15,828 nt of DNA. It comes from a virus. The translations under genes and the position numbers were made by a program. The stretch lies in the IMG/VR virus record IMGVR_UViG_3300031997_002496. One strand, written 5' to 3'. Under the pieces are notes generated by a model. It worked only from the letters and a program-made list of their open reading frames with translations. It did no database searches and was not told the DNA's origin. This document shows, one piece after another, positions 41 to 12,748 of the stretch. The first letter of the stretch is position 1. Each line of letters opens with the position of its first letter.

Positions 41-301
41 TTAGGCATCGCGTTTGTACTCCATCCTCTGATTCTCTTCCGCGACCAACTTCTCGAACTG
101 CTCGATCAACTTCTGCTTGTTTCCCTTAAGCCCGTACTCCTGCTTCACGCGGGTGAAGCACGAAGGACCTCGGGTCAGTTTCATGCCGGTCTTGAGCTCG
201 GTCTTCATCCCATGCAGCAGGGTGTTCATGCGAAAAAAATTGACTGCCTTCGGACCGTCGAACAACGTCGGCGTTCCGTCCTTCGTTACGCTGATAGTCA
301 A
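41..301 (-). CDS. hypothetical small protein (86 aa)
   Basis: ATG at 299-301 (minus) preceded by AAGGAGG with a 4-nt spacer; stop TAA at 41-43. No family recognised. The N-terminus MTISV is identical to that of the 10188..10613 protein. Confidence 0.6.
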   Translation of the reverse strand: MTISVTKDGTPTLFDGPKAVNFFRMNTLLHGMKTELKTGMKLTRGPSCFTRVKQEYGLKGNKQKLIEQFEKLVAEENQRMEYKRDA

Positions 302-325
302 TGCAGCCTCCTTTGTGTGCAGGGG

Positions 326-353
326 CTTATACCCAAATCACCCCGCTTTTACG
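326..353 (-). promoter_or_regulatory. putative promoter (CGTAAA-N16-TATAAG, read on the minus strand) for gene 41..301
   Basis: Minus-strand reading: CGTAAAAGCGGGGTGATTTGGGTATAAG, followed about 14 nt later by AAAGGAGG and the ATG. A near-identical arrangement sits upstream of gene 10188..10613. It lies in the 76-bp divergent intergenic region 302..377. On the plus strand the same core reads TTATAC and could serve gene 378..731. Confidence 0.4.
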
Positions 354-377
354 GGTGGCCGGGCCTACACTTGGGGC

Positions 378-731
378 GTGAAGACGGTACTGGTAGTAGA
401 CGACGACACCCTCATACGGAGGCTCGTACATGACGCGCTGACCAAGCGTGGGGGCTACGCTGTGCTCGAAGCCGAGGACGGTGTGGACGGGGTAGCGCGC
501 TTTCTGCTGCACAGGCCTGACATCCTCATCACGGACATCTCGATGCCAAACAGCGACGGCTTGGAGATGCTCGACGTTCTCAAAAAAGGAAAGCTGCTCG
601 AAGGCGTCCGCGTCGTCATCATGTCCGGCGTGTTGAACACGGAGACGCTCCGCGCAAAAAATACCGGCGCCGCCGCGCTACTGAGTAAACCGTTCAACCT
701 TCAAGAGCTGTACGATGCCATTGGGGGATGA
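378..731 (+). CDS. stand-alone CheY-like response-regulator receiver domain protein (about 117 aa)
   Basis: C-terminal part of ORF 117..731. GTG at 378 (MKTVLVVDDDTL...) is the first in-frame start after the divergent intergenic region. Receiver motifs occur in canonical order: acidic pocket VVDDD, phospho-acceptor Asp in ILITDISMP (codon 534-536), Ser in VIMSG, Lys in LSKPF. There is no output domain. The exact start is uncertain. Confidence 0.85.
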   Translation: MKTVLVVDDDTLIRRLVHDALTKRGGYAVLEAEDGVDGVARFLLHRPDILITDISMPNSDGLEMLDVLKKGKLLEGVRVVIMSGVLNTETLRAKNTGAAALLSKPFNLQELYDAIGG

Positions 732-734
732 GGC

Positions 735-1010
735 ATGCGTCGAACAAAGCGAGCAGGAATCGGGGAAGAGAAAGTGAAGAAGATTTCCGTCAAGCGACTC
801 CCCCGCAAGACCTCCTTCATTGTGCAGTACTCTGACGGACGTCGAGTAGAAACGTCGTACGTAGAGATCCAAGGAAATGCTACGCTCTACCTGGACCCTG
901 GAACGAAAGAGCCCGTCCTCCGGACAGAAGCAAACGTAAATCTCGGACACGCCACAGGAACCTGCGCGGTATGCGGGGGAGATACAGATGACCAACACGC
1001 CCATGCTTGA
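735..1010 (+). CDS. hypothetical protein (91 aa)
   Basis: ATG at 735, 3 nt after the receiver gene stop, preceded by GGGGATGAGG. It overlaps the next gene by 23 nt. No family recognised; there is a single CAVCGG near the C-terminus. Confidence 0.55.
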   Translation: MRRTKRAGIGEEKVKKISVKRLPRKTSFIVQYSDGRRVETSYVEIQGNATLYLDPGTKEPVLRTEANVNLGHATGTCAVCGGDTDDQHAHA

Positions 1011-3207
1011 CCGCTTCAAGATCGCCGCCAAGCAAAAGAAAGAAAAGAAGAAACCGGCGGAGCCGGAGTCCTTCAAATGGACAAGCGGCCCTGAGGAAAA
1101 AGAAGAGCCGGATGGTGCGGTCATGCGCGCCGCAAAGATGTTCGGTAAGGGTATGGGCGGGCTCGCCGCGGGAAATCTGGCAGCGACGCCTCTGGCCATA
1201 GGTACTTTCGCGCTGGACGACCGCCTCAAAGAGCAGAGGCCTGTAGGTACTCGGCAGATTGCCTCAGAGATGGGGCAGAAGATCGACAAGTATACGCACG
1301 GGGATCCTGGGGGCGGAGTCGGAGCGACCAGGGATGGGAAACTGGTTACGCTCATTCGTACGCGGCCAAAGGACTCAGAAGCCATCAAGGCGCACGAAGT
1401 GGGCCACGTCAAAAACGTTGAGATGGTTGGGAAGATGCCGTGGGGCCTCGCGCGAAGCGGCTCCGGAATGTTGACCAGTCTGAGTGGCCCCGCGGCGGGA
1501 GTCTATTCCGCCGTCGCCGACGACCCGTCGTACACCCCCTCGATGGTGCACCTCGGACTGAGCGCGCCGATCCTGTTGGACGAAGCTCTCGCATCTCTCC
1601 GAGCCCTGCATCACATGACTGGAAAGCATGGCCTCGGTACAGGGATGAAGCGGTCCCTCCCTCTGCTGCCAGCCTTTGGGTCGTATGCGGCGCAAGCCCT
1701 CGCACCGGCCGGAATCGTAGCGCTGCGCCGCTTCCTCAAAAAGAGGGAGGATGAAAAAAAAAAGACCAGCGGGGGAGTAGCCGAGAAAACGGCTAAGATC
1801 ACAACCAAGCTCAAGCCGCACCAACAGCGGGTCGTTGACCGCATGGAAGACGAAGACCAGCCGGGCATTGTGGCGGCCCATGGGTTGGGTTCCGGCAAAA
1901 CGCTGACAAGCCTGGCGGTGCAAGAGGCGCTCGGACTTCCTGCCGACATCGTAACACCTGCGGCCCTCCAGTCGAACTACCAAAAAGAGATCAAAGCTCA
2001 CACCACCAAGCATCCCGAAACACACATTCAAAGCTTGGAGGGCGTCGCTCGTACGGGCGGCTCGGGTCTCAAGAGCCCCTTCCTGGTGGTGGATGAAGCC
2101 CACCGTCTGCGAAATGCGGGCAAGGCTCGCACGGGGATCAAAGCTTCTCCAGCCAAGAAACGCCTCGCCCTCACCGGGTCCCTTCTCTACAACCACCCCT
2201 CCGACGTATCAGGCCCCATCAACATGGTAGCGGGGCGCTCCGTGCTTCCGGAGAACCCCGACGAATTCACTCAACGTTTCCTGCAAGACGTCCCCATGAG
2301 TCGCAGTCTCTGGGAACGTCTCCGGGGTACGCCCGCGTTCTATCAGACCCGTCTCAATCCAAAGTCGGTGGGGTCGCTCCAGGCAGCTCTCGACAAGTAC
2401 GTTGATTTTCACCCCGGTAGCACTGAGGACTTCCCGACGCGAGAAGACGCGACTGTCCGCGTACCGATGACCCGCGACCAGATGAAGCTGTACGAAAACG
2501 TTGGTAAGGATCAACCTGGCTGGCTGCGTCGGAAGGTTCTGATGAACCTCCCACCGACCAAAGCCGAAGCGAAACAGCTCAACGCTTTCCTCACCGGTGT
2601 CCGGCAGGTAGCCAACACAACGCAGGGATTTGACACCAGCGCCCACCCGGCGCACCAGCCGAAGATCGACCGAGCTGTGACAGAGCTGCAGAGCATGCTG
2701 GCGAAGAATCCTCGTGCGAAAGCAATCGTCTACTCGCACTACCTCGAATCAGGGATCGACCCGTACAAGAAGAAGCTTGAGGAACTCCACATCCCGCATG
2801 GTTCTTTCACCGGCGAGATGCCGCGCGCTGAACGGGACCGCATGGTGAAAGACTACAACTCCGGGAAGCTGAAAGCCCTGCTGCTCTCCAGCGCCGGCGG
2901 CGAAGGCTTGGACCTCAAGGGAACTCGCCTCATCCAACTCCTCGAGCCCCACTGGAATCAGGAGAAGCTGAAGCAGGTCATCGGTCGCGGCATCCGCTAC
3001 AAGAGCCACTCCGGCCTCCCCGAGAATGAGCGAAACGTCCTGGTGCAGCGGTACCTCGCAACGCGAGCTCCCTACGGAGCCATGGAGCGCCTGGGCCTAC
3101 GCAAGCCCGGCTACGGCGTAGATGAGTACCTCGATGAGATGGGCGCCCGTAAGGAGCAGCTGAACGAGCAGGTCCGGCGCATGCTGCGAGAGCCACAAAG
3201 TACTTGA
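988..3207 (+). CDS. SNF2-family (SF2) helicase/translocase with an N-terminal HExxH metallopeptidase-like region (739 aa)
   Basis: ATG at 988 after GGGGGAG. SNF2/SF2 motifs occur in order: KPHQQRVV (Q/Ia-like), GLGSGKT (1882-1902), LVVDEAHRLRN with DEAH at 2092-2103, LTGSLLYN, AIVYSHY, SSAGGEGLDL, QVIGRGIRYKS. The N-terminal region of about 250 aa has a Lys/Glu-rich start, then HEVGH (1393-1407) within IKAHEVGHVKN, flanked by Gly-rich or hydrophobic stretches (GMGGLAAGNLAATPLAIGTFAL; LPLLPAFGSYAAQALAPAGIVAL). Confidence 0.9.
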   Translation: MTNTPMLDRFKIAAKQKKEKKKPAEPESFKWTSGPEEKEEPDGAVMRAAKMFGKGMGGLAAGNLAATPLAIGTFALDDRLKEQRPVGTRQIASEMGQKIDKYTHGDPGGGVGATRDGKLVTLIRTRPKDSEAIKAHEVGHVKNVEMVGKMPWGLARSGSGMLTSLSGPAAGVYSAVADDPSYTPSMVHLGLSAPILLDEALASLRALHHMTGKHGLGTGMKRSLPLLPAFGSYAAQALAPAGIVALRRFLKKREDEKKKTSGGVAEKTAKITTKLKPHQQRVVDRMEDEDQPGIVAAHGLGSGKTLTSLAVQEALGLPADIVTPAALQSNYQKEIKAHTTKHPETHIQSLEGVARTGGSGLKSPFLVVDEAHRLRNAGKARTGIKASPAKKRLALTGSLLYNHPSDVSGPINMVAGRSVLPENPDEFTQRFLQDVPMSRSLWERLRGTPAFYQTRLNPKSVGSLQAALDKYVDFHPGSTEDFPTREDATVRVPMTRDQMKLYENVGKDQPGWLRRKVLMNLPPTKAEAKQLNAFLTGVRQVANTTQGFDTSAHPAHQPKIDRAVTELQSMLAKNPRAKAIVYSHYLESGIDPYKKKLEELHIPHGSFTGEMPRAERDRMVKDYNSGKLKALLLSSAGGEGLDLKGTRLIQLLEPHWNQEKLKQVIGRGIRYKSHSGLPENERNVLVQRYLATRAPYGAMERLGLRKPGYGVDEYLDEMGARKEQLNEQVRRMLREPQST

Positions 3208-3883: not shown

Positions 3884-4378
3884 ATGTTCGTCGTACTCGA
3901 TCTTGACCAGACCCTCGCTGACAATGCCCACCGCGCCCATCACGTAGAAAAGGAACCCAAGAACTGGGATGCGTTCTTTGCTCCGGACCTCGTCATCAAA
4001 GACACGGTCATCGTGGGCGCAGAACGTGTCCTCACCCACTTCAATGACTTGAAATACGACTTCGTCATCCTCACAGGACGTAACGAAGATCTCCGCGACA
4101 CGACCATGCGCTGGATCCAAGAGAAGCTGAGCATCACGGTGCTCGATACACACCTGCTCATGCGCCCCAACGGAAACATGCTCAACGCGGCGGAGTTCAA
4201 GCGGGAGCAGCTGCTCAACTTCAAGCAGGGGCTCGAGAATCGAGACAGCGACTTCATCATCATCGATGATGACTCCGCGGTAGGAGCGGCTCTGAGTTCT
4301 TTCGGTGTCGTCCTCAAGGCGCCGGAGTGCTGGCCTCTTCTTTTCCCGGTCCAGGAACCCGAGAAAATCGAAGAGTAG
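3884..4378 (+). CDS. HAD-superfamily phosphatase, T4 Pnkp phosphatase-domain-like (164 aa)
   Basis: ATG at 3884 after AAGGAG. HAD motif I is DLDQT at the extreme N-terminus (MFVVLDLDQTLA, 3899-3913), motif II is ILTGR, and motif III/IV is Lys (FKREQ) followed by IIIDDD. The size and the pattern WDAFF ... LTGRNEDLRDTTMRWI ... LLMRP match stand-alone phage polynucleotide 3-prime-phosphatase/nucleotidase-type HAD proteins. Confidence 0.8.
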   Translation: MFVVLDLDQTLADNAHRAHHVEKEPKNWDAFFAPDLVIKDTVIVGAERVLTHFNDLKYDFVILTGRNEDLRDTTMRWIQEKLSITVLDTHLLMRPNGNMLNAAEFKREQLLNFKQGLENRDSDFIIIDDDSAVGAALSSFGVVLKAPECWPLLFPVQEPEKIEE

Positions 4379-4381
4379 CCC

Positions 4382-4387
4382 TATACT
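4382..4387 (+). promoter_or_regulatory. TATACT -10-like hexamer 5 nt upstream of ATG 4393 (implies a leaderless or near-leaderless mRNA)
   Basis: The sequence is CCCTATACTGGCGCATG. There is no room for a Shine-Dalgarno between the hexamer and the ATG. The same CTATACT heptamer recurs at 5040-5046 and 13896-13902, both in intergenic positions. Confidence 0.35.
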
Positions 4388-4392
4388 GGCGC

Positions 4393-5028
4393 ATGCCGCT
4401 CAACGGGGCATACTCCTGGAAAGAGGACAATCTCTCCCCCGACGAGCGGGTTGACCATTTTTTCAATTTGATTGATCACGCCGTCGAGAACGGAATTCCG
4501 CTAGCTGAGCTGTTCCACCGGAAGCACGTCAAAAGCTTCCTCCTCTATCTCTTGCAACGGTACGACGAGCCCTGTAAAACCTGCAACCTTCGCCCAACTA
4601 AAGGATCAACCACAATGCCCAAGCTGACTCTGACCAGTACGTTTGCCTCGTCCATCGTCATCGGTGATCCGGCCAACATCACCTTCACCTTGCTCCCCAA
4701 AGAGACGAAGTCCGTAGAAGTGACGGATGTCCAACTCCGCCAGCTCACCCCAGGCCTGGAGAAGCTCAAAGGAGCTGGCTGGCTGAACTACGTGGCAGGC
4801 GTCGCGGCTCCCGTCGCTGTCCCAGAGCCCGTCAAGGTGGTCGAAGACGTGAAGGTCGTCGCAGTGCCGGTGGCCCCGCCGCCCGCTCCTGAGCCCGTTG
4901 CCGCCCCTGAACCCGTAGCGGCCCCTGAGCCTGCCGCTGAGGAAGCCGCCGCCCCTGAGGCTCCCGTGGCGAAGGTGGAAGAGGCTCCGAAGCAGAACCT
5001 CTTCGACCGGAAGAATCGCAACCGCTAA
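4393..5028 (+). CDS. hypothetical protein with a C-terminal Pro/Ala/Glu-rich repeat linker (212 aa from ATG 4393; alternative ATG 4615)
   Basis: ORF 4327..5028. The first 22 codons overlap the HAD gene and precede the TATACT element, so ATG 4393 (MPLNGAYSWKED...) is preferred. ATG 4615 (MPKLTLTST...) is preceded by AAAGGA and is an alternative or internal start. The C-terminus is APEPVA-type low complexity ending in KQNLFDRKNRNR. Confidence 0.6.
   Translation: MPLNGAYSWKEDNLSPDERVDHFFNLIDHAVENGIPLAELFHRKHVKSFLLYLLQRYDEPCKTCNLRPTKGSTTMPKLTLTSTFASSIVIGDPANITFTLLPKETKSVEVTDVQLRQLTPGLEKLKGAGWLNYVAGVAAPVAVPEPVKVVEDVKVVAVPVAPPPAPEPVAAPEPVAAPEPAAEEAAAPEAPVAKVEEAPKQNLFDRKNRNR
4885..4968 (+). repeat. 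imperfect 18-bp in-frame tandem repeat encoding (A)PEPVA units
   Basis: The units are gctcctgagcccgttgcc, gcccctgaacccgtagcg and gcccctgagcctgccgct, then a 12-nt spacer, then gcccctgaggctcccgtg. The repeat lies inside CDS 4393..5028 and encodes APEPVAAPEPVAAPEPAAEEAAAPEAPV. Confidence 0.8.
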
Positions 5029-5053: not shown

Positions 5054-5470
5054 ATGAGCCACCCTCTCGAGAATGCCTACTGGACCGGCCAGGTCGCGGC
5101 CTGTGAATCGTTTGGCGTCAAAGAAGCTGGAGTCCTCGGACAGATCGGCAAGTGGGGCGGCAAAGCCCTGCAATGGGGTGGGCGTGCCGCCGGAGTTGTA
5201 CCGGTCGCCGGTGAGGCCGTCGGCGCTATCGCTGGTGGCCTCGGCGGCGTGATGCAGGGCGCTGCCCAAGGTGAAGGCTGGAAGGGCATGGCCGCTCGCG
5301 GAGCGGCCGGTGCTGCCACTGGCGCGATGCCTCTCGGAGCTGGTCTGGTCGCTGGCGCTGCGAGTGATCTCGCGCTCGACAAGATGCTGGCGAAGAAACC
5401 CCCGGGGCCTCAGAACGCCCCAATGCCGGGGATGATGGGGCAGGGGCACCTTCCGGGGCATGCTGCGTGA
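5054..5470 (+). CDS. Gly/Ala-rich protein (138 aa) with N-terminal Y-x2-G-x2-A-A-x3-F motif
   Basis: ATG at 5054; stop TGA overlaps the next start. The motif AYWTGQVAACESFG is at 5078..5113. It is followed by glycine-zipper-like stretches (AGEAVGAIAGGLGGVMQGAAQG, GAAGAATGAMPLGAGLVAGAAS) and a Pro/Met/Gly tail. Confidence 0.65.
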   Translation: MSHPLENAYWTGQVAACESFGVKEAGVLGQIGKWGGKALQWGGRAAGVVPVAGEAVGAIAGGLGGVMQGAAQGEGWKGMAARGAAGAATGAMPLGAGLVAGAASDLALDKMLAKKPPGPQNAPMPGMMGQGHLPGHAA

Positions 5471-5952
5471 TGTCCCTCTCTCACCACGCATACAGCCTCG
5501 GAGCCTCGGACGCCAAAGTGGCGTTCTTTGGAGAGCTCTACGAGAAGCACATCAAAGGGGATCTTGGCCCCTTCGCGAGCGGTCTCTTCGTAGGGAGCCC
5601 TCTTAGTGCCGCGGCGGCAGGAGCCGCGGGACAAGCTCTCGACACGCCGGCTGGAGGATCAAAGATTCTCCGAAGTATCGGTGTCGGAGCCGGTGCAGCG
5701 GCGGCGAATAAGGTAGTTTCCCCTATCGCTAATTTCGTAGCCCATGCGGTAATGATGGGGCTCAACCCCATTCTGTATTCTTTGCCGGTGTTGGGATACC
5801 CGCCAGTCGCCGCGGCTATTTCGCAGCTGCTCGGAACCGCGATCCACGAGATTCCGACAGGTATCGCCCAGTCGTATGCTGCAACAAAGGGCCGAGCAGC
5901 GGCGCAACATCTTGAGAAGTTCCTACAGAAAAAGGACGTGAGGGTACCATGA
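5470..5952 (+). CDS. Gly/Ala-rich hydrophobic protein (160 aa) with N-terminal copy of the shared motif
   Basis: ATG at 5470 shares its A with the upstream TGA (GTGATG; GTG 5467 is also possible). The motif AYSLGASDAKVAFFG is at 5491..5526. Hydrophobic stretches (SIGVGAGAAAANKVV, MMGLNPILYSLPVLGYPPVAAAISQLLG) may be membrane-active. Confidence 0.65.
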   Translation: MSLSHHAYSLGASDAKVAFFGELYEKHIKGDLGPFASGLFVGSPLSAAAAGAAGQALDTPAGGSKILRSIGVGAGAAAANKVVSPIANFVAHAVMMGLNPILYSLPVLGYPPVAAAISQLLGTAIHEIPTGIAQSYAATKGRAAAQHLEKFLQKKDVRVP

Positions 5953-6563
5953 TGACCAAAGAATGCACCTGCAAGGACGGCAAGAAAGATCCGAAGTGCA
6001 AGGCTTGCTCGAAGGGTGACGTCAACCTGGACAGCTTTCACCGCCTGAATCCTGAGGCCAAGCCCAAGACGGCTGGGCAGTTCAAGCTCGCCGGAGGGAA
6101 CCCCGGACTGTGGGGTGGGCTGAGTCAGGCCACCAAAGACCGCATCCTCAGCGCGGGCAAGGCGGGGCTCACCAGCGCCGTGCTGCCTGCGGCGGGCTCT
6201 GCGCTCGCAGCGGGTCTGGCGGCTGAACCGGGGCAGGGCTGGTCCGACGCGGCGAAGGCAGGGCTCGTGGGCGCAACGGCTGGCGGGCTTGCTGGCGCAG
6301 GACACCACCTCGGCATGACGGGGTCCAGCGACCTGGCGCACAGCTACCAGCGCGGCATCGGCGGCGACGTTCGAAACATGGGCAACTGGGGACGAGAGCA
6401 GATGGGACGCCCACTTCTGGCGCACCCCAACACCCCGCCACCGCCGAAAGTTGTTCCTGCTCCCGATGTGACGCCGACTCCCTCTGTCACCCCTGAAATT
6501 CCGAAGACGGGGATGTTCTACGAGTTCGGGAAGACCGCGGCGCTCTCTGCCTTCGCAATCTGA
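5949..6563 (+). CDS. Gly/Ala-rich protein (204 aa) with an N-terminal Cys knuckle and a C-terminal copy of the shared motif
   Basis: ATG at 5949 in an ATGA overlap with the upstream stop, preceded by GTGAGGG. The N-terminus is CTCKDGKKDPKCKAC (CxC...CxxC). The middle is Gly/Ala-rich and is followed by a Pro-rich stretch. The C-terminus is FYEFGKTAALSAFAI-stop (6519..6554). Confidence 0.7.
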   Translation: MMTKECTCKDGKKDPKCKACSKGDVNLDSFHRLNPEAKPKTAGQFKLAGGNPGLWGGLSQATKDRILSAGKAGLTSAVLPAAGSALAAGLAAEPGQGWSDAAKAGLVGATAGGLAGAGHHLGMTGSSDLAHSYQRGIGGDVRNMGNWGREQMGRPLLAHPNTPPPPKVVPAPDVTPTPSVTPEIPKTGMFYEFGKTAALSAFAI

Positions 6564-6570
6564 GACTCCC

Positions 6571-6756
6571 ATGCCTTTCAAAAGCGAAGCACAGCGCCGG
6601 CTGTTCCACGTGAAGGCTGACAAGGGAGAGATCTCCAAGGACACCGTGAGCGAGTGGGAGCACGCCACCAAGAACAAGAAGAAACTCCCAATGCACGTAA
6701 AGAAGTCCTACGAGCTTGGAAAACAGGCGGCGCTGAAAAGCTTTGCACTGAGGTGA
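6571..6756 (+). CDS. small protein (61 aa) with a KSxAQxR N-terminal motif (DUF3008-like, from memory) and a C-terminal copy of the shared motif
   Basis: ATG at 6571. MPFKSEAQRRLFHVKADKGEISKDTVSEWEHATKNKKKLP resembles the widespread small KS-x-AQ-x-R ... LP proteins of phages and bacteria. The C-terminus is SYELGKQAALKSFALR-stop (6709..6744). No clear Shine-Dalgarno. Confidence 0.55.
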   Translation: MPFKSEAQRRLFHVKADKGEISKDTVSEWEHATKNKKKLPMHVKKSYELGKQAALKSFALR

Positions 6757-6759
6757 GCG

Positions 6760-9700
6760 GTGGGTGAGTACGACCGGGGAGCTCGAGCAGCGCTAGCCCT
6801 CTTCAGCAAGGAGGCCAATACCGGTGTGACCGCGGGCCACGTCAATCCTCTTCCGGTCGCAGGCAGCGGGTTCAATCAAGTAGCACAACAGGGAAATCCG
6901 ATGGCAGGACGGGTCGCCCACTCCCTCGTCGGTGGCGCCACTGGCGGAATTCTCAACGCGATGATGGCCCCCTCAGGGGACCGCATGCGGCAGGGGGCCA
7001 TTGGCTTTGCGTCAGACGCCATCGGAAGCGCCCTGGGCCCTTGGGGGATGATTGCCAGCCCCCTTCTGAACATGGGGCTCCAACAGCTGACATCCTCAAG
7101 TGGGGAAGAGAAGCGCGCTGACCACGCGGATGATCGGCTGAAAGAGCGAATCAAAACGGAGTTCCCGCCGGACACGCTGGCAAAACTCAGAGCACAAGCA
7201 AAAGAACTCGAGCTCGCTCCGGGACGGTACTACCTCCCGATGAAAGACAAGGCCGGGAACACAGCGGCAATTGCAGCGTTCAAGACCGTTGGCCCGAAGG
7301 ATCAGCTGGTACTGGCGACAGTTCTGAAACCCAAGAACAACCCTCCGTCAGGCACATCACTTTCGCACCTGATGAAGCAACCTCTCGGGTCCCAGATTGC
7401 CAAGGTGGATGCGTCCCCCAAGACATACACGATCCGCAAGAACGACGCAGGGCGCCTGACGTGCACCTGCAAGAGCTTCAAGTTCAACCACCGAGCGGCG
7501 GGCACGAACTGTAAGCACATCGACGAGCACCTTGGAAACACGAAGGAGTCTGCGAACCGGTTTGAGCAGTTCCTCCTCAACCAGGGTAACGTCAGCGATC
7601 CTCAGAAGACGCAACTCCGTGGACAGTTCGGACGGCTGACCCCTCGCCCGACGGCGAAGTCGAAGGCCCTCACCAGCCAAGCTTTGGCGCTGGAGCCTGG
7701 TCCGCAGCAAGCAGCGTCTCTGCGGTCCATGCGGACGTTGATGCAGACGCCGCACTACCCGGACAAAGACAGCCTCGAACGAACGCGCCGAATTCACGAG
7801 CTCTCCCTCACACCAAAGCTTCGAGCAATGGGCGGCAAGAGTCTTGACGCTCGGCGTGCTGCGGCGACCGACCCCACGTTCTTCTACGACGAGAAGAAAC
7901 GGTTCGCGACGCCAGGAGAGTACCAGGCCAAGTCGTTACGTCTCGGCGAAGAAACAGCTCCCACAGGGCTCCGGGCCGAACACGTTCTTCGCTCTGCGGC
8001 GGCAGGGAAACCCATCGAAACCAAGCTCTCCCCTGAAGCAGGGCGGCTGGTGATGTACCCAGACGCCTTGAAGGTGCAGCGTGAGCGCCTGAACAAGCAA
8101 CGCACCACCCCCGGCCAAACCAAACCCTGGGACCCCACCGACATGCGCCAGACCCTTGAGCACGAGGGGGCGGAGCGCAAGATGGTTCTCGAAGGCGTGC
8201 GCAGAGGCAAGCCGTCCACAGCGTACTCTTCGCACTGGGGCAGTGAGGCTGACGTCGCGGCGAACCAGGTCGCAGCCAAGGATCCCAAGAGTCAGTGGGT
8301 TCCAAACAACCCCGACTCCTTCATCGAGAAGGAACACTGGGACCGCCTCTACAAGCAGCACGGCGGGACTCGGGGACGCCCCATCCCGTCAGACAGTCGA
8401 GCTTCACGCAGCTTGGATAGATCAATCGCAGGCGTCATGGCGAAGACCCCCTTGACCGAGAAAACGCGGCCAGATCTCACAGCCGCCTTGGACGCAGGAG
8501 TCATGGGAATGCCTCTCCATCCGGAACTCGAAGCGCGTCTGAAGCGTGACTTCACCAAACTGAAGCCGGAGCTCGGTGAAACCTCCGCGCCCTGGGACGA
8601 CGCATCCCGGAGCCAAAAGGCTCTCGAAGTCCTGAAGAGTCGAACCCGGATGAAGACGTCCGCGGAAGGCGTGCGTCACTCTGGTGAACCCATCGACAAC
8701 CAGGAGGAGCCTCAGACCACGGAGGCTCCGATGCCTCCGCCTGAGAAGAAGAAGTCCTGGCTCCCTGCCTTGGGTACCGCGGCGGCGCTGGGACTTGGGA
8801 CGTACGGCCTCCTTCGCCGACCCTCGTTCTCTGCGAACCCCGCCCTGCGGAAAACACAGCAGTTGGCGGCGGAGAAAGGGTTCCACCGCATCGTTCCGGT
8901 GATGAAGTCCACAGATCTCCCAGACCCTGAGGCGGGGTTCCTGGGGCGGCTGCACCACAAGATTCAACCCAAAGTCGATGAGCAGGGCCGCATGAACTTG
9001 CTCAACCGCTTCAAGTTCTGGGCGCAGGAAGGCGGAGAAGCCGTCCCTATCGGGTACACGGACAAAGGGAAGGCGTTCATCCCCAACGGAGGGAAGCCGG
9101 TCAAGACTGAAGGCGTTGTCTTCGGTCGCCCCATGCTCGAGCCGAAGGAACGCAAACTTGTACGGGGTGGGGTGGACATCGAGGGGTCGGCGAAGACCCA
9201 ACGAGCCCTTACCGACATGGGGTTGAAGGGCAAGGGCATGGAAGCAACCCTCCTTCAGCGCCATTCCCCAGGAGCGGCGCCAAAGACGGTCGTCGATCTC
9301 TCCAAGTTCATGGCGCCTCCAAAGGGGAGAGAAACTTCGAACCAGCGGGTTGCGCGGATTCGCGAAATTCAGAAAGCAATGCAGGCAAAATTCAAAGGTA
9401 CGGAGATGGAAGACCACCTCCTCAAACCGACCCTTGGATTCAACTCCGGCGGGAAGTTCCCCATGAGCGGGGACGATTGGGGCAAACACCTCGCCAGGTT
9501 CGACAAAGCCATGGCAGATCCGGCGTTCAAGGCGAAATTTCAGAAAGCCACCCCCGACGAATTCGCCAACATGGTGTGGGACAAGAAGATTCTCGAGGGA
9601 CACACGCTCCACGAGATGCTGAAGAACCCGCAGTCGGCGATTGCTCAGCAGCAGATCCCCAACCGGCTTGGGGAGTGGCGCGTCAACGTTACCAAGGGTG

Positions 9701-10158
9701 AAGCCCCGTTGAGCATGATGGCGCCGCGTGGGGCTACCGACAACCCGATGGAGTCTCTCAAAGAACTGGCAACTGAGGGAGTAAGCCCCTTCAAGATCAA
9801 ACAGTTCGTTGAAGGCCACGTCCGAAAGCTTCCGAAGCACTACCGCGAAGGAACGTACGGCGCTGACGTGATGCCGTACTACACGCCTGAAGGGAAGCTG
9901 GACTACAAATTCGTCGAGCTCAACCCATCAGAGCGGGCGGGGTACCACGGTAGCGCCGGTGGCGGCTCAGGCTTCCTCGACGCCAGCAACATCCCCTGGG
10001 CGGGGCACGCACACTACCGCACGGCGACGGGCCGCCACACGACGCCAGTGGCTATGGCCGGAGGCTTGGCAGCGGCTGGGCTGGGCGGTATGGCGGCTCG
10101 AGCGCTGACGCCTGAGCAGAAGGATGAGGAAGAAGACGCCCCACATCCTGTGGGCTAA
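6760..10158 (+). CDS. 1132-aa multidomain protein: N-terminal shared motif plus Gly-rich region, SWIM-type zinc finger, central region of unknown function, TM segment, C-terminal ATP-grasp-like domain
   Basis: GTG at 6760 after GAGGTGAG. The N-terminus is MGEYDRGARAALALF (motif at 6769..6804). SWIM pattern CxC-x14-CxH is in LTCTCKSFKFNHRAAGTNCKHI (7462..7518). A hydrophobic segment SWLPALGTAAALGLGTYGLL lies at about 8754..8815. ATP-grasp-like motifs lie at about 9400..9990: LLKPTLGFNSGGKF (Lys-containing ATP-binding strand plus Gly loop), IAQQQIPNRLGEWRVNVTKGE (E-x-R-V strand) and YGADVMPYYTPEGKLDYKFVELNPSERAG (Mg-binding x-E-x-N). The C-terminus has a second hydrophobic Gly/Ala stretch and an acidic tail. 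Confidence 0.88.
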   Translation: MGEYDRGARAALALFSKEANTGVTAGHVNPLPVAGSGFNQVAQQGNPMAGRVAHSLVGGATGGILNAMMAPSGDRMRQGAIGFASDAIGSALGPWGMIASPLLNMGLQQLTSSSGEEKRADHADDRLKERIKTEFPPDTLAKLRAQAKELELAPGRYYLPMKDKAGNTAAIAAFKTVGPKDQLVLATVLKPKNNPPSGTSLSHLMKQPLGSQIAKVDASPKTYTIRKNDAGRLTCTCKSFKFNHRAAGTNCKHIDEHLGNTKESANRFEQFLLNQGNVSDPQKTQLRGQFGRLTPRPTAKSKALTSQALALEPGPQQAASLRSMRTLMQTPHYPDKDSLERTRRIHELSLTPKLRAMGGKSLDARRAAATDPTFFYDEKKRFATPGEYQAKSLRLGEETAPTGLRAEHVLRSAAAGKPIETKLSPEAGRLVMYPDALKVQRERLNKQRTTPGQTKPWDPTDMRQTLEHEGAERKMVLEGVRRGKPSTAYSSHWGSEADVAANQVAAKDPKSQWVPNNPDSFIEKEHWDRLYKQHGGTRGRPIPSDSRASRSLDRSIAGVMAKTPLTEKTRPDLTAALDAGVMGMPLHPELEARLKRDFTKLKPELGETSAPWDDASRSQKALEVLKSRTRMKTSAEGVRHSGEPIDNQEEPQTTEAPMPPPEKKKSWLPALGTAAALGLGTYGLLRRPSFSANPALRKTQQLAAEKGFHRIVPVMKSTDLPDPEAGFLGRLHHKIQPKVDEQGRMNLLNRFKFWAQEGGEAVPIGYTDKGKAFIPNGGKPVKTEGVVFGRPMLEPKERKLVRGGVDIEGSAKTQRALTDMGLKGKGMEATLLQRHSPGAAPKTVVDLSKFMAPPKGRETSNQRVARIREIQKAMQAKFKGTEMEDHLLKPTLGFNSGGKFPMSGDDWGKHLARFDKAMADPAFKAKFQKATPDEFANMVWDKKILEGHTLHEMLKNPQSAIAQQQIPNRLGEWRVNVTKGEAPLSMMAPRGATDNPMESLKELATEGVSPFKIKQFVEGHVRKLPKHYREGTYGADVMPYYTPEGKLDYKFVELNPSERAGYHGSAGGGSGFLDASNIPWAGHAHYRTATGRHTTPVAMAGGLAAAGLGGMAARALTPEQKDEEEDAPHPVG

Positions 10159-12520: not shown

Positions 12521-12748
12521 TCACGTCTCGCCAGCTGATCCTTTACCAGCAGGAGGGACAGAACCTCCTTGTCGGGGATCGGTGCAGAGACCTTCTTTGA
12601 TGTATCTTTCCGCTTGGCGGCCATAGTGTCCTTGTAGTGTCCAGGCCATGCCTGAATCGATTAGCTTTTGGAAGAAGGCCACCTCCTCCGCGCTGGTCAT
12701 CTCGTCGTTCTCGTACTTGATCAGGTCCTCGGTCAAAATCTGATTCAA
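12521..12748 (-). CDS. small conserved-looking phage-type protein (75 aa)
   Basis: TTG start at 12748 in a TTGA overlap with the ligase stop. The pattern ...YENDEMTSAEEVAFFQKLIDSGMAWTLQGHYGRQAERYIKEGLC resembles a small protein family I recall from many phage genomes (E-x-x-x-FF/LF-Q-x-LID-S-G-x-x-W-x-LQG-x-YGR). That recollection is unverified. Confidence 0.55.
   Translation of the reverse strand: MNQILTEDLIKYENDEMTSAEEVAFFQKLIDSGMAWTLQGHYGRQAERYIKEGLCTDPRQGGSVPPAGKGSAGET

Follow-up and report, generated by a model that had tools for sequence, protein, structure and literature searches.

A giant phage protein joining a carrier-like front half to a predicted ATP-grasp ligase with a neighbouring C39 peptidase gene

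A giant open reading frame (ORF) encoding a protein of 1132 amino acids (aa) was studied in a 15,828-nucleotide (nt) stretch of viral DNA (IMG/VR record IMGVR_UViG_3300031997_002496), which is referred to below as the window. With a probability of about 0.6, we interpret the product as a polyvalent phage protein that carries a helix-tethered, peptidase-partnered protein or peptide ligase. Its back half appears to be a self-contained ATP-grasp amide ligase with an intact active site; a Gly/Ala-rich helix lies on either side of the ligase, and an acidic tail closes the protein. The front half, composed of a short motif, Gly/Ala-rich stretches, an unannotated domain that we call 'HADDRLKER', and a SWIM finger, would serve as a reusable carrier or anchor module; in sister phages this module is found on its own as well as on an SNF2 helicase or a DNA ligase. 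Joining such a carrier-like module to a ligase unit follows the pattern of phage polyvalent proteins as laid out in the main text of Iyer, Burroughs, Anand, de Souza and Aravind (2017, PMC5512222).

The 1132 codons run without interruption, and the same gene is called in the annotation of the source contig (L015; related loci and proteins are designated below by L and P numbers). A search of 5.8 billion proteins returned 18 relatives, including one identical protein, three full-length proteins at 63-83% identity, and one at 46%. Since the giant protein and its homologues align colinearly, the ORF is a real, conserved gene. When the whole protein was compared with Pfam, PHROGs and NCBIfam, only a weak SWIM match and phrog_5016, a family of unknown function (E 0.0013, aa 226-254), were obtained. 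No match was found when the whole protein and two stand-alone relatives, P0059 and P0022, were searched by tblastn against 50,697 phage records, and one scan of GTDB genomes with N-domain patterns revealed no relatives in 185,579 species genomes. The single giant-protein sequence touched ALK in the PDB, which proved to be a low-complexity match only and was discarded. An earlier annotation of the window, made by a model from the letters alone (the sequence-only reading), had described the domain combination as unlike any known family; indeed, no Pfam, NCBIfam or PHROG family, cultured-phage record, or solved structure matches it.

The evidence for a ligase comes from the C-terminal module. An exhaustive profile search of 1.84 billion cluster representatives (E <= 0.001) defined a family of 477 clusters at 50% identity, 89 of them with E <= 1e-30, most of whose members are stand-alone proteins of 450-500 aa. 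Residue conservation was counted over the 143 representatives that cover the ATP-grasp domain. R974, D1036, E1053 and N1055 were each invariant (143/143), and K825, K889, Q963 and E972 were kept in 135, 140, 139 and 142 sequences, respectively. A conserved loop, G893-x-x-S896-G-G898-x-F900-P901, was also evident (S in 110, G in 122, F in 113, and P in 118 of the 143). In the predicted model, the two-lobed catalytic fold, consisting of a RAGNYA domain and a protein-kinase/PIPK-like domain, can be seen, with K889 (in LLKP) on predicted strand 197-201, R974 (in E-W-R-V) on strand 283-289, D1036 on strand 343-352, and E1053 and N1055 at the end of strand 358-366. K825 lies within a K-x-x-E-A-x-L-L...P motif that resembles the start of the classical module, and it may correspond to the Lys of the linker before the RAGNYA domain, where the superfamily has a positively charged residue. 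The superfamily is defined by a Lys near the end of RAGNYA strand 2, an acidic residue in strand 4 of the kinase-like lobe, and a terminal ExN, and a conserved Arg marks the clade that holds most amide-bond-forming ATP-grasp ligases (PMC4431377). Because the catalytic residues are found where this definition puts them, the ATP-grasp assignment stands. The sequence-only reading had proposed an ATP-grasp-like C-terminus, and both the predicted fold and the residue conservation agree with it, the ATP/Mg ligands being kept across the 143 representatives. Judging from this conservation and from the model, the module is very probably an active ATP-grasp ligase.

The stand-alone members of the family share a fixed layout. 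They often begin with a [YF]-x-x-G-x-x-x-[AS]-[L]-x-x-[YF] motif, followed by a basic-Ser-Trp/Leu element, a Gly/Ala-rich hydrophobic helix, and an R-x-P-x-F-S junction; then come the ATP-grasp domain, an invariant T-G-R, a second Gly/Ala-rich helix, and an acidic tail. Residues 663-1132 of the giant protein show all of these ligase-unit elements. Hydropathy was calculated as the Kyte-Doolittle mean over 19 residues, for which a classical transmembrane helix reaches at least 1.5-1.6. Four weakly hydrophobic Gly/Ala-rich stretches were found, with maxima of 1.14 and 1.05 in the N-terminal region (aa 52-70 and 81-99), 1.22 at aa 667-685, and 1.26 at aa 1095-1113; the last two bracket the ATP-grasp module. 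The one transmembrane segment of the sequence-only reading is thus borne out insofar as moderately hydrophobic stretches exist, but there are four of them and none attains 1.5. Only about one quarter of ATP-grasp family members reach this value on either side of the domain. From the sequence, insertion of these stretches into a membrane is plausible.

The ligase unit also occurs in other fusions. Relatives fuse the same ATP-grasp domain to InPase, KTSC and DUF5661, to SNF2, to LigD_N and DNA ligase, or to Amidoligase_2. Such partners are characteristic of phage polyvalent proteins (PMC5512222). As a separate observation, the unit also occurs in multiple copies: the whole helix-ATP-grasp-helix unit is duplicated in tandem in P0056 (901 aa), two ATP-grasps are joined to an Amidoligase_2 domain in P0099 (1176 aa), and two ATP-grasp genes flank a C39 peptidase gene in locus L016. 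Several ligases per system may act in succession.

A stand-alone C39 peptidase gene lies 30 nt downstream of the ligase gene and is convergent with it. C39 loci were found with a hidden Markov model built from four stand-alone peptidases. A tail-to-tail arrangement of ligase and C39 genes was seen in L001-3 (with one gene between), L004, L010, L011, and L013/14, and in L016 the C39 gene is placed between the two ATP-grasp genes. Counted in this way, the pairing is present in seven distinct loci; their ligase domains share 37-73% identity with that of the window, and the genes around them stand in different orders. Conversely, L005, L006 and L007 keep the domain corresponding to aa 118-210, and neither ligase nor C39 gene is present within 10 kb. 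In L012, the most distant locus, an InPase gene accompanies the ligase and C39 is missing. The co-occurrence suggests that ligase and peptidase are functionally coupled, although the common descent of these phages also plays a part in it. In the annotation of the source contig, the C39 gene is called as a 118-aa protein (L015 13429-13785) that begins after the catalytic Cys17; since this call misses Cys17, the 141-aa frame with a GTG start is the plausible one.

The front half of the giant protein has a different composition and distribution. Residues 1-117 contain 17% Gly and 15% Ala, in line with the Gly-rich N-terminus described earlier. The Gly/Ala-rich region at aa 40-112 is kept in homologues; short proteins, P0162 for example, also have it ahead of their aa 118-210 domain, and Gly-rich sequence regularly precedes this domain (P0162; L008). 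The domain itself, 'HADDRLKER', was found in 33 stand-alone proteins of 87-190 aa, none of them Pfam-labelled on that domain. It is N-terminal to an SNF2 helicase in L011 (4946-7213) and N-terminal on a 1269-aa protein of L007 (9989-13798) that also contains LigD phosphoesterase, DNA ligase, DUF5661, a HEIGH zincin motif, and Gly-rich stretches. In L013 (4429-4767) it is encoded three genes away from the ligase-C39 pair. The domain thus behaves as an N-terminal module common to different enzymes. Its HAxxRxxER ... VVaTVL pattern suggested a DUF4258/RelE-like (BECR) ribonuclease, a tentative affiliation that was supported by no search.

The zinc-finger region that follows retains the ligands C235-x-C237-x13-C251-x-H253, all four of which are kept wherever the region exists (13 of 18 sequences); it is absent from P0014, P0015, P0017 and P0018. 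SWIM matches were obtained in 9 of the 13 family members (best E 2e-4), and the region is modelled, at low confidence, as three beta-strands and then a helix. The SWIM finger named in the sequence-only reading is therefore upheld in its signature and conserved ligands, but the isolated region scored 16.8 bits with the Pfam SWIM model (PF04434), below the cut-off of 19.6. Residues 263-655, which gave no family or PDB match, are 70% identical in L001 and missing in P0007, P0009, P0010 and P0012-15. In relatives we also noticed a further unannotated domain with the motif HSHPEGWTMHEDRHP, whose several His and Asp residues are possibly metal-binding; it is inserted in P0005, P0006 and P0008, prefixed to P0017 and P0018, and present in the L007 protein at aa ~600-700. 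The window protein does not have it.

At its N-terminus the giant protein carries a motif that it shares with the upstream ORFs. Sequences resembling Y-x-x-G-x-x-A-A-L-x-x-F were found in five consecutive plus-strand ORFs (at nt 5078, 5491, 6519, 6709 and 6769) and nowhere else in the six frames of the window, in agreement with the shared motif reported by the sequence-only reading. The motif is N-terminal in the ORFs starting at 5054 and 5467 and in the giant ORF, and C-terminal in the ORFs starting at 5949 and 6571; it occupies equivalent termini in sister loci L003-L006 and L011. The three upstream Gly/Ala-rich ORFs are conserved in L001, L004, L005, L006 and L011. The upstream ORF proteins are 138-204 aa long and contain 29-43% Gly+Ala, 5-7% Asp+Glu, and 5-8% Lys. 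Of 146 family representatives, 38 have the motif in relaxed form ahead of the ATP-grasp domain, whereas shuffling led one to expect 3.0 and gave at most 8 in 200 rounds; its usual position in the ATP-grasp family is at residues 4-11. Direct reading by eye revealed no evident double-glycine (C39-type) leader after the motif.

The segment encoded by the 61-aa ORF immediately upstream forms the N-terminus of the giant protein in P0007, P0008, P0011, P0013, P0016 and P0017. An insertion that these fused homologues do not have supplies the window with the stop codon and with a second copy of the motif. The window thus shows a gene fission, each product of which has its own copy of the motif. Since both products carry it, the motif may work on each polypeptide separately, as a docking helix or tag. 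Programmed read-through of the TGA at 6754-6756 was considered and rejected: a Shine-Dalgarno-like GAGGTG overlaps the stop of the preceding ORF, the GTG start lies 3 nt past that stop, and there is a motif copy on each product. The first two features fit ordinary translational coupling. The in-frame upstream ORF, the aa 118-210 domain, the second hydrophobic helix, and the C39 partner had all been missed in the sequence-only reading.

Taken as a polyvalent protein with a tethered ligase, the giant protein would act as follows. With ATP and Mg, the enzyme would form an acyl-phosphate on a substrate carboxylate, which would then be joined to an amine, so that an amino acid or peptide would be added to a protein, of either the host or the phage, as is done by RimK and the tubulin ligases and predicted for the R2K enzymes. 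The two helices probably serve to anchor the enzyme, either at a membrane or within an assembly, and maturation of the ligase or of its substrate is the most likely task of the C39 peptidase encoded next to it. If the analogy with polyvalent proteins holds, the virion may also deliver the protein, and the architecture fits the effector, packaged or ejected, that the sequence-only reading suggested. Several points weigh against this interpretation. The enzyme's activity and substrate are predictions from sequence and model; the N-terminal subdomain of the model and its last 40 residues are of low confidence; and the window protein reaches no Pfam ATP-grasp cut-off. No 19-residue segment of the giant protein has a mean hydropathy of 1.5, which places its hydrophobic stretches below classical transmembrane thresholds. 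The C39 pairing could partly reflect synteny inherited within one phage lineage. Finally, portal, capsid and MuF genes are not found nearby, the neighbours being DNA-metabolism genes (SNF2, PNKP phosphatase, DNA ligase), so that virion packaging is only an analogy.

A bolder version of the proposal, which we put forward very tentatively and regard as improbable, is that ligase and C39 peptidase form a phage protein-ligation system acting on full-length proteins, in which the ligase would recognise the motif helix (Y-x-x-G-x-x-x-A-L-x-x-F). Termini of motif-tagged Gly/Ala-rich proteins, or of the ligase itself, would be exposed or trimmed by the peptidase, and new peptide or isopeptide bonds made by the ligase would tag or cross-link a membrane-active assembly during infection. 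Closely related is the sequence-only reading's analogy with graspetides and other ribosomally synthesised and post-translationally modified peptides (RiPPs). In an extended form of this analogy, ATP-grasp and C39 enzymes would constitute a graspetide-like or a tagging and cross-linking system with the co-encoded, motif-bearing Gly/Ala-rich proteins as substrates, the motif helix as the recognition element of the ligase, and the peptidase trimming the substrates or exposing a carboxylate for ligation. The occurrence of the motif in five consecutive ORFs, its maintenance at protein termini in sister loci, and its retention on both products of the gene fission count in favour of such a system, as does the coming and going of ligase and C39 together (paired in seven loci, both absent in three). 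A broader family profile (A5) searched against PDB sequences gave non-significant matches only, and the only ATP-grasps among them were graspetide ligases, 5ig8 (E 0.057) and PsnB 7drm (E 0.39). The C39 pairing and these weak matches keep the graspetide idea alive. However, the candidate substrates are long, rich in Gly and Ala and poor in Asp and Glu, unlike leader-core precursors, and show no double-glycine leader consensus after the motif; the motif is C-terminal as well as N-terminal and is carried by the ligase proteins themselves; and the Gly-rich ORFs persist in L005 and L006, where neither enzyme is encoded within 10 kb. The analogy is thus not well supported, and we consider it unlikely.

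Alternatively, the protein could be a helix-tethered small-molecule ligase that acts on an envelope precursor or metabolite, as D-Ala-D-Ala or L-amino-acid ligases do, and thereby alters the host envelope or metabolism. The only Pfam models matched by the family are the R2K families, which are predicted protein modifiers (PMC4431377), and macromolecular targets are suggested by the peptidase gene next door as well as by fusions to DNA enzymes, which makes this explanation quite improbable. The glycine-zipper-like segments of the giant protein and of the four ORFs that precede it also bring to mind a mainly structural role, as an ejection or channel-forming virion protein in which the ATP-grasp fold is a non-catalytic scaffold. 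In T7-like and N4-like phages, ejection-protein operons encode small proteins and then a giant one, an order that the window recalls, and ORF 5949-6563 has a weak PHROG match to an internal virion protein (E 0.042). The essentially invariant catalytic residues of 143 diverged representatives argue for enzymatic selection, and no structural genes flank the locus. We therefore regard a structural role as very improbable and retain the polyvalent protein with a tethered ligase as the preferred interpretation.

The five related loci in IMG/VR are all on predicted viral contigs of 168-194 kb, an example of which is IMGVR_UViG_3300037493_005727, and the giant gene belongs to an uncultivated phage of roughly 190 kb. 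The order of genes is kept: a receiver domain, an SNF2 helicase, a PNKP-type HAD phosphatase, four small Gly/Ala-rich ORFs, and the giant gene are followed by the C39 peptidase, an ATP-dependent DNA ligase, and an MVP-shoulder protein (Table 1). A dCMP deaminase is encoded upstream on the source contig (L015 2106-2651). The locus is a DNA/RNA-repair-rich region, not a structural module; PHROG scans of the neighbours in related loci for a structural-gene context produced weak or single matches only, and the loci covered contain no head or portal genes. Searches for related loci with a single C-domain sequence returned none, and a four-sequence alignment returned one contig only.

Three neighbours deserve separate mention. 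The SNF2 helicase (988-3207, plus strand) has an N-terminal extension of ~260 aa with a HEVGH zincin-like motif and Gly-rich hydrophobic stretches, and appears to be a second polyvalent protein; ORF 3706-5892 of L005 shares 39% identity with it, and its L001 orthologue is without the extension. The minus-strand ORF at 14888-15820 is the C-terminal part of a major-vault-protein (MVP)-like gene (MVP_shoulder, E 5e-19), and the corresponding protein of a sister contig (L001 18808-21510, minus strand) is 900 aa long with weak Vault repeat matches. Viral MVP homologues were described in a 2023 preprint (bioRxiv 10.1101/2023.11.10.566534). That the terminal shared motif might be a cargo signal for an MVP-like shell is pure speculation. 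The plus-strand ORF at 4327-5028 contains a Pro/Ala-rich repeat (APEPVAAPEPVAAPEPAA); in sister loci L001, L004, L005 and L006, conservation is confined to the N-terminal part of this ORF.

Table 1. Coordinates in the window of the giant gene, its parts, and neighbouring genes
Feature	Position (nt)	Strand	Basis or remarks
Whole gene, 1132 aa	6760..10158	+	GTG start, TGA stop; ORF list and translation
N-terminal shared motif YDRGARAALALF, aa 4-15	6769..6804	+	
Gly/Ala-rich, moderately hydrophobic region, aa 40-112	6877..7095	+	Composition, hydropathy; two glycine-zipper-like stretches (aa 52-70, 81-99)
'HADDRLKER' domain, aa 118-210	7111..7389	+	Unannotated; most conserved part of the giant protein
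SWIM-type zinc finger region, aa 211-262	7390..7545	+	CxCx13CxH at aa 235-253 (nt 7462-7518)
Variable middle region, aa 263-655	7546..8724	+	No recognisable domain; closest relatives only
Basic 'KKKSW' element, hydrophobic helix 1 (aa 667-685), 'RRPSFS' junction	8746..8832	+	Also precedes the domain in stand-alone members
ATP-grasp module, aa 690-1094	8827..10041	+	Predicted fold and residue conservation
N-terminal alpha/beta subdomain of the ATP-grasp module	8827-9201	+	
Catalytic core of the ATP-grasp module	9202-10041	+	K825, K889, Q963, E972, R974, D1036, E1053, N1055
Gly/Ala-rich hydrophobic helix 2, aa 1096-1116	10045..10107	+	After the invariant TGR motif; conserved in stand-alone homologues
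Acidic C-terminal tail ending PHPVG	10108..10155	+	Acidic tails general in the ATP-grasp family
Stand-alone C39 peptidase, 141 aa	10188..10613	-	Pfam Peptidase_C39 E 7.6e-19; Q11, C17, H95, D111 present
61-aa ORF (MPFKSEAQRRLFH...)	6571..6756	+	In the frame of the giant ORF, one TGA (6754-6756) between; C-terminal motif copy SYELGKQAALKSFAL
Three overlapping or abutting Gly/Ala-rich ORFs	5054-5470, 5467-5952, 5949-6563	+	Motif at N- or C-terminus
Receiver-domain protein	117-731	+	
PNKP-type HAD phosphatase	3884-4378	+	
DUF7417	12521-12748	-	
ATP-dependent DNA ligase	12745-13863	-	

Predicted phage ATP-grasps of the R2K type and the concept of polyvalent proteins are already known. What is new is a large unannotated family with a fixed helix-domain-helix layout, an N-terminal motif, and a C39 partner; the carrier-like 'HADDRLKER' domain; and the fusion of an amidoligase with a SWIM finger. 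All of the family's clusters, at least 477, come from metagenomes, and none is annotated. To our knowledge, protein-modifying ATP-grasp ligases (RimK, tubulin ligases, CDC123) are few and each is biologically important. Two small genes with adjacent candidate substrates offer a testable entry that could reveal a new phage post-translational modification activity, and the presence of one carrier-like domain on a helicase, a DNA ligase, or an amidoligase bears on how large phages assemble and deploy multi-enzyme proteins. If the protein-ligation proposal were true, it would amount to an enzyme-driven conjugation chemistry unrelated to ubiquitin-like, sortase, or Pup systems.

Among known systems, the closest to the ligase domain is the R2K clade. 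ATP-grasp ligases in phages, especially of this clade, have already been predicted (PMC4431377; PMC7824862). As described by Burroughs, Zhang and Aravind (2015, PMC4431377), the clade comprises CDC123/R2K.1, R2K.2 and R2K.3; its members have lost the linker Lys and compensate with a Lys or Arg just after the strand-2 Lys, have a variable strand 2-3 loop without the ssxGbGl motif, and, in R2K.3, have ExGD in place of ExN. The R2K families were predicted to modify proteins, the phage members those of the host, a prediction for which no experimental test was found in the literature. R2K_3 (PF14243) and R2K_2 (PF18299) are the only Pfam ATP-grasp models touched by the window family. P0056 (41.7 bits) and P0099 (38.2 bits) pass the gathering score, in the kinase-like lobe only, the divergent P0016-18 match below threshold (P0016 at 22.5 bits against a cut-off of 26.3), and the window protein gives no match to either model. 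In contrast to R2K, the window family keeps a Lys (K825) ~64 residues upstream of the strand-2 Lys, at what we take to be the classical linker-Lys position, has a conserved G-x-x-S-G-G-x-F-P loop after K889, and shows no conserved basic residue at aa 890-906, where the best candidates are K904 (51/143) and R891 (27/143). In contrast to R2K.3, it has an ExN with invariant Asn (E-L-N-P) and not ExGD. The flanking helices, N-terminal motif, and C39 partner have likewise not been described for R2K. Because the features that define R2K are not those of the window family, the domain is filed outside the clade and would, from its sequence, be an unmodelled family of amide-ligase ATP-grasps that neighbours R2K.

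With the omega-ester/amide macrocyclases of graspetides, MdnB/MdnC, PsnB and CdnC, the window family has the ATP-grasp fold in common; its E-x-N-P-G-G-x-x-G segment aligns with MdnB-type enzymes, and a helix-like motif conserved on neighbouring gene products recalls the recognition of graspetide leaders. Unlike in graspetide systems, no short leader-core precursor rich in Thr, Ser and Lys plus Asp and Glu adjoins the window ligase. Profiles of the C-terminal and N-terminal alignments (A2 and A3) gave no match to PDB sequences at E <= 10, and there is no sequence-level match to RimK, LysX/ArgX, or the tubulin tyrosine and glutamate ligases. Compared with RimK-type protein-tailing ligases, the N-terminal subdomain, the flanking helices, and the genomic context are all different. 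No description of an ATP-grasp/C39 pairing in phages was found by term searches of the open-access literature. The zinc finger resembles SWIM (PF04434) in its CxCxnCxH signature, which ends in the typical C-K-H, and in the beta-strands that precede it; it differs in scoring below the gathering cut-off and in its partners, which here are an unannotated domain and an amidoligase and not a transposase, SNF2 ATPase, or kinase.

The overall architecture is nearest to that of phage polyvalent proteins (PMC5512222). Unlike these, the giant protein is without MuF, portal, or an in-cis zincin peptidase, and a term search of the main text of that paper did not find an amidoligase ATP-grasp, a SWIM finger in such a context, the 'HADDRLKER' domain, or a separate C39 peptidase. 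As with the polyvalent proteins of that main text, it is a large multi-domain phage protein with at least four modules, and, as they do, its modules recombine in relatives, here with InPase, KTSC, DUF5661, SNF2, LigD_N/DNA ligase, and a zincin motif. The HExxH segment of the neighbouring SNF2 protein adds to this polyvalent context.

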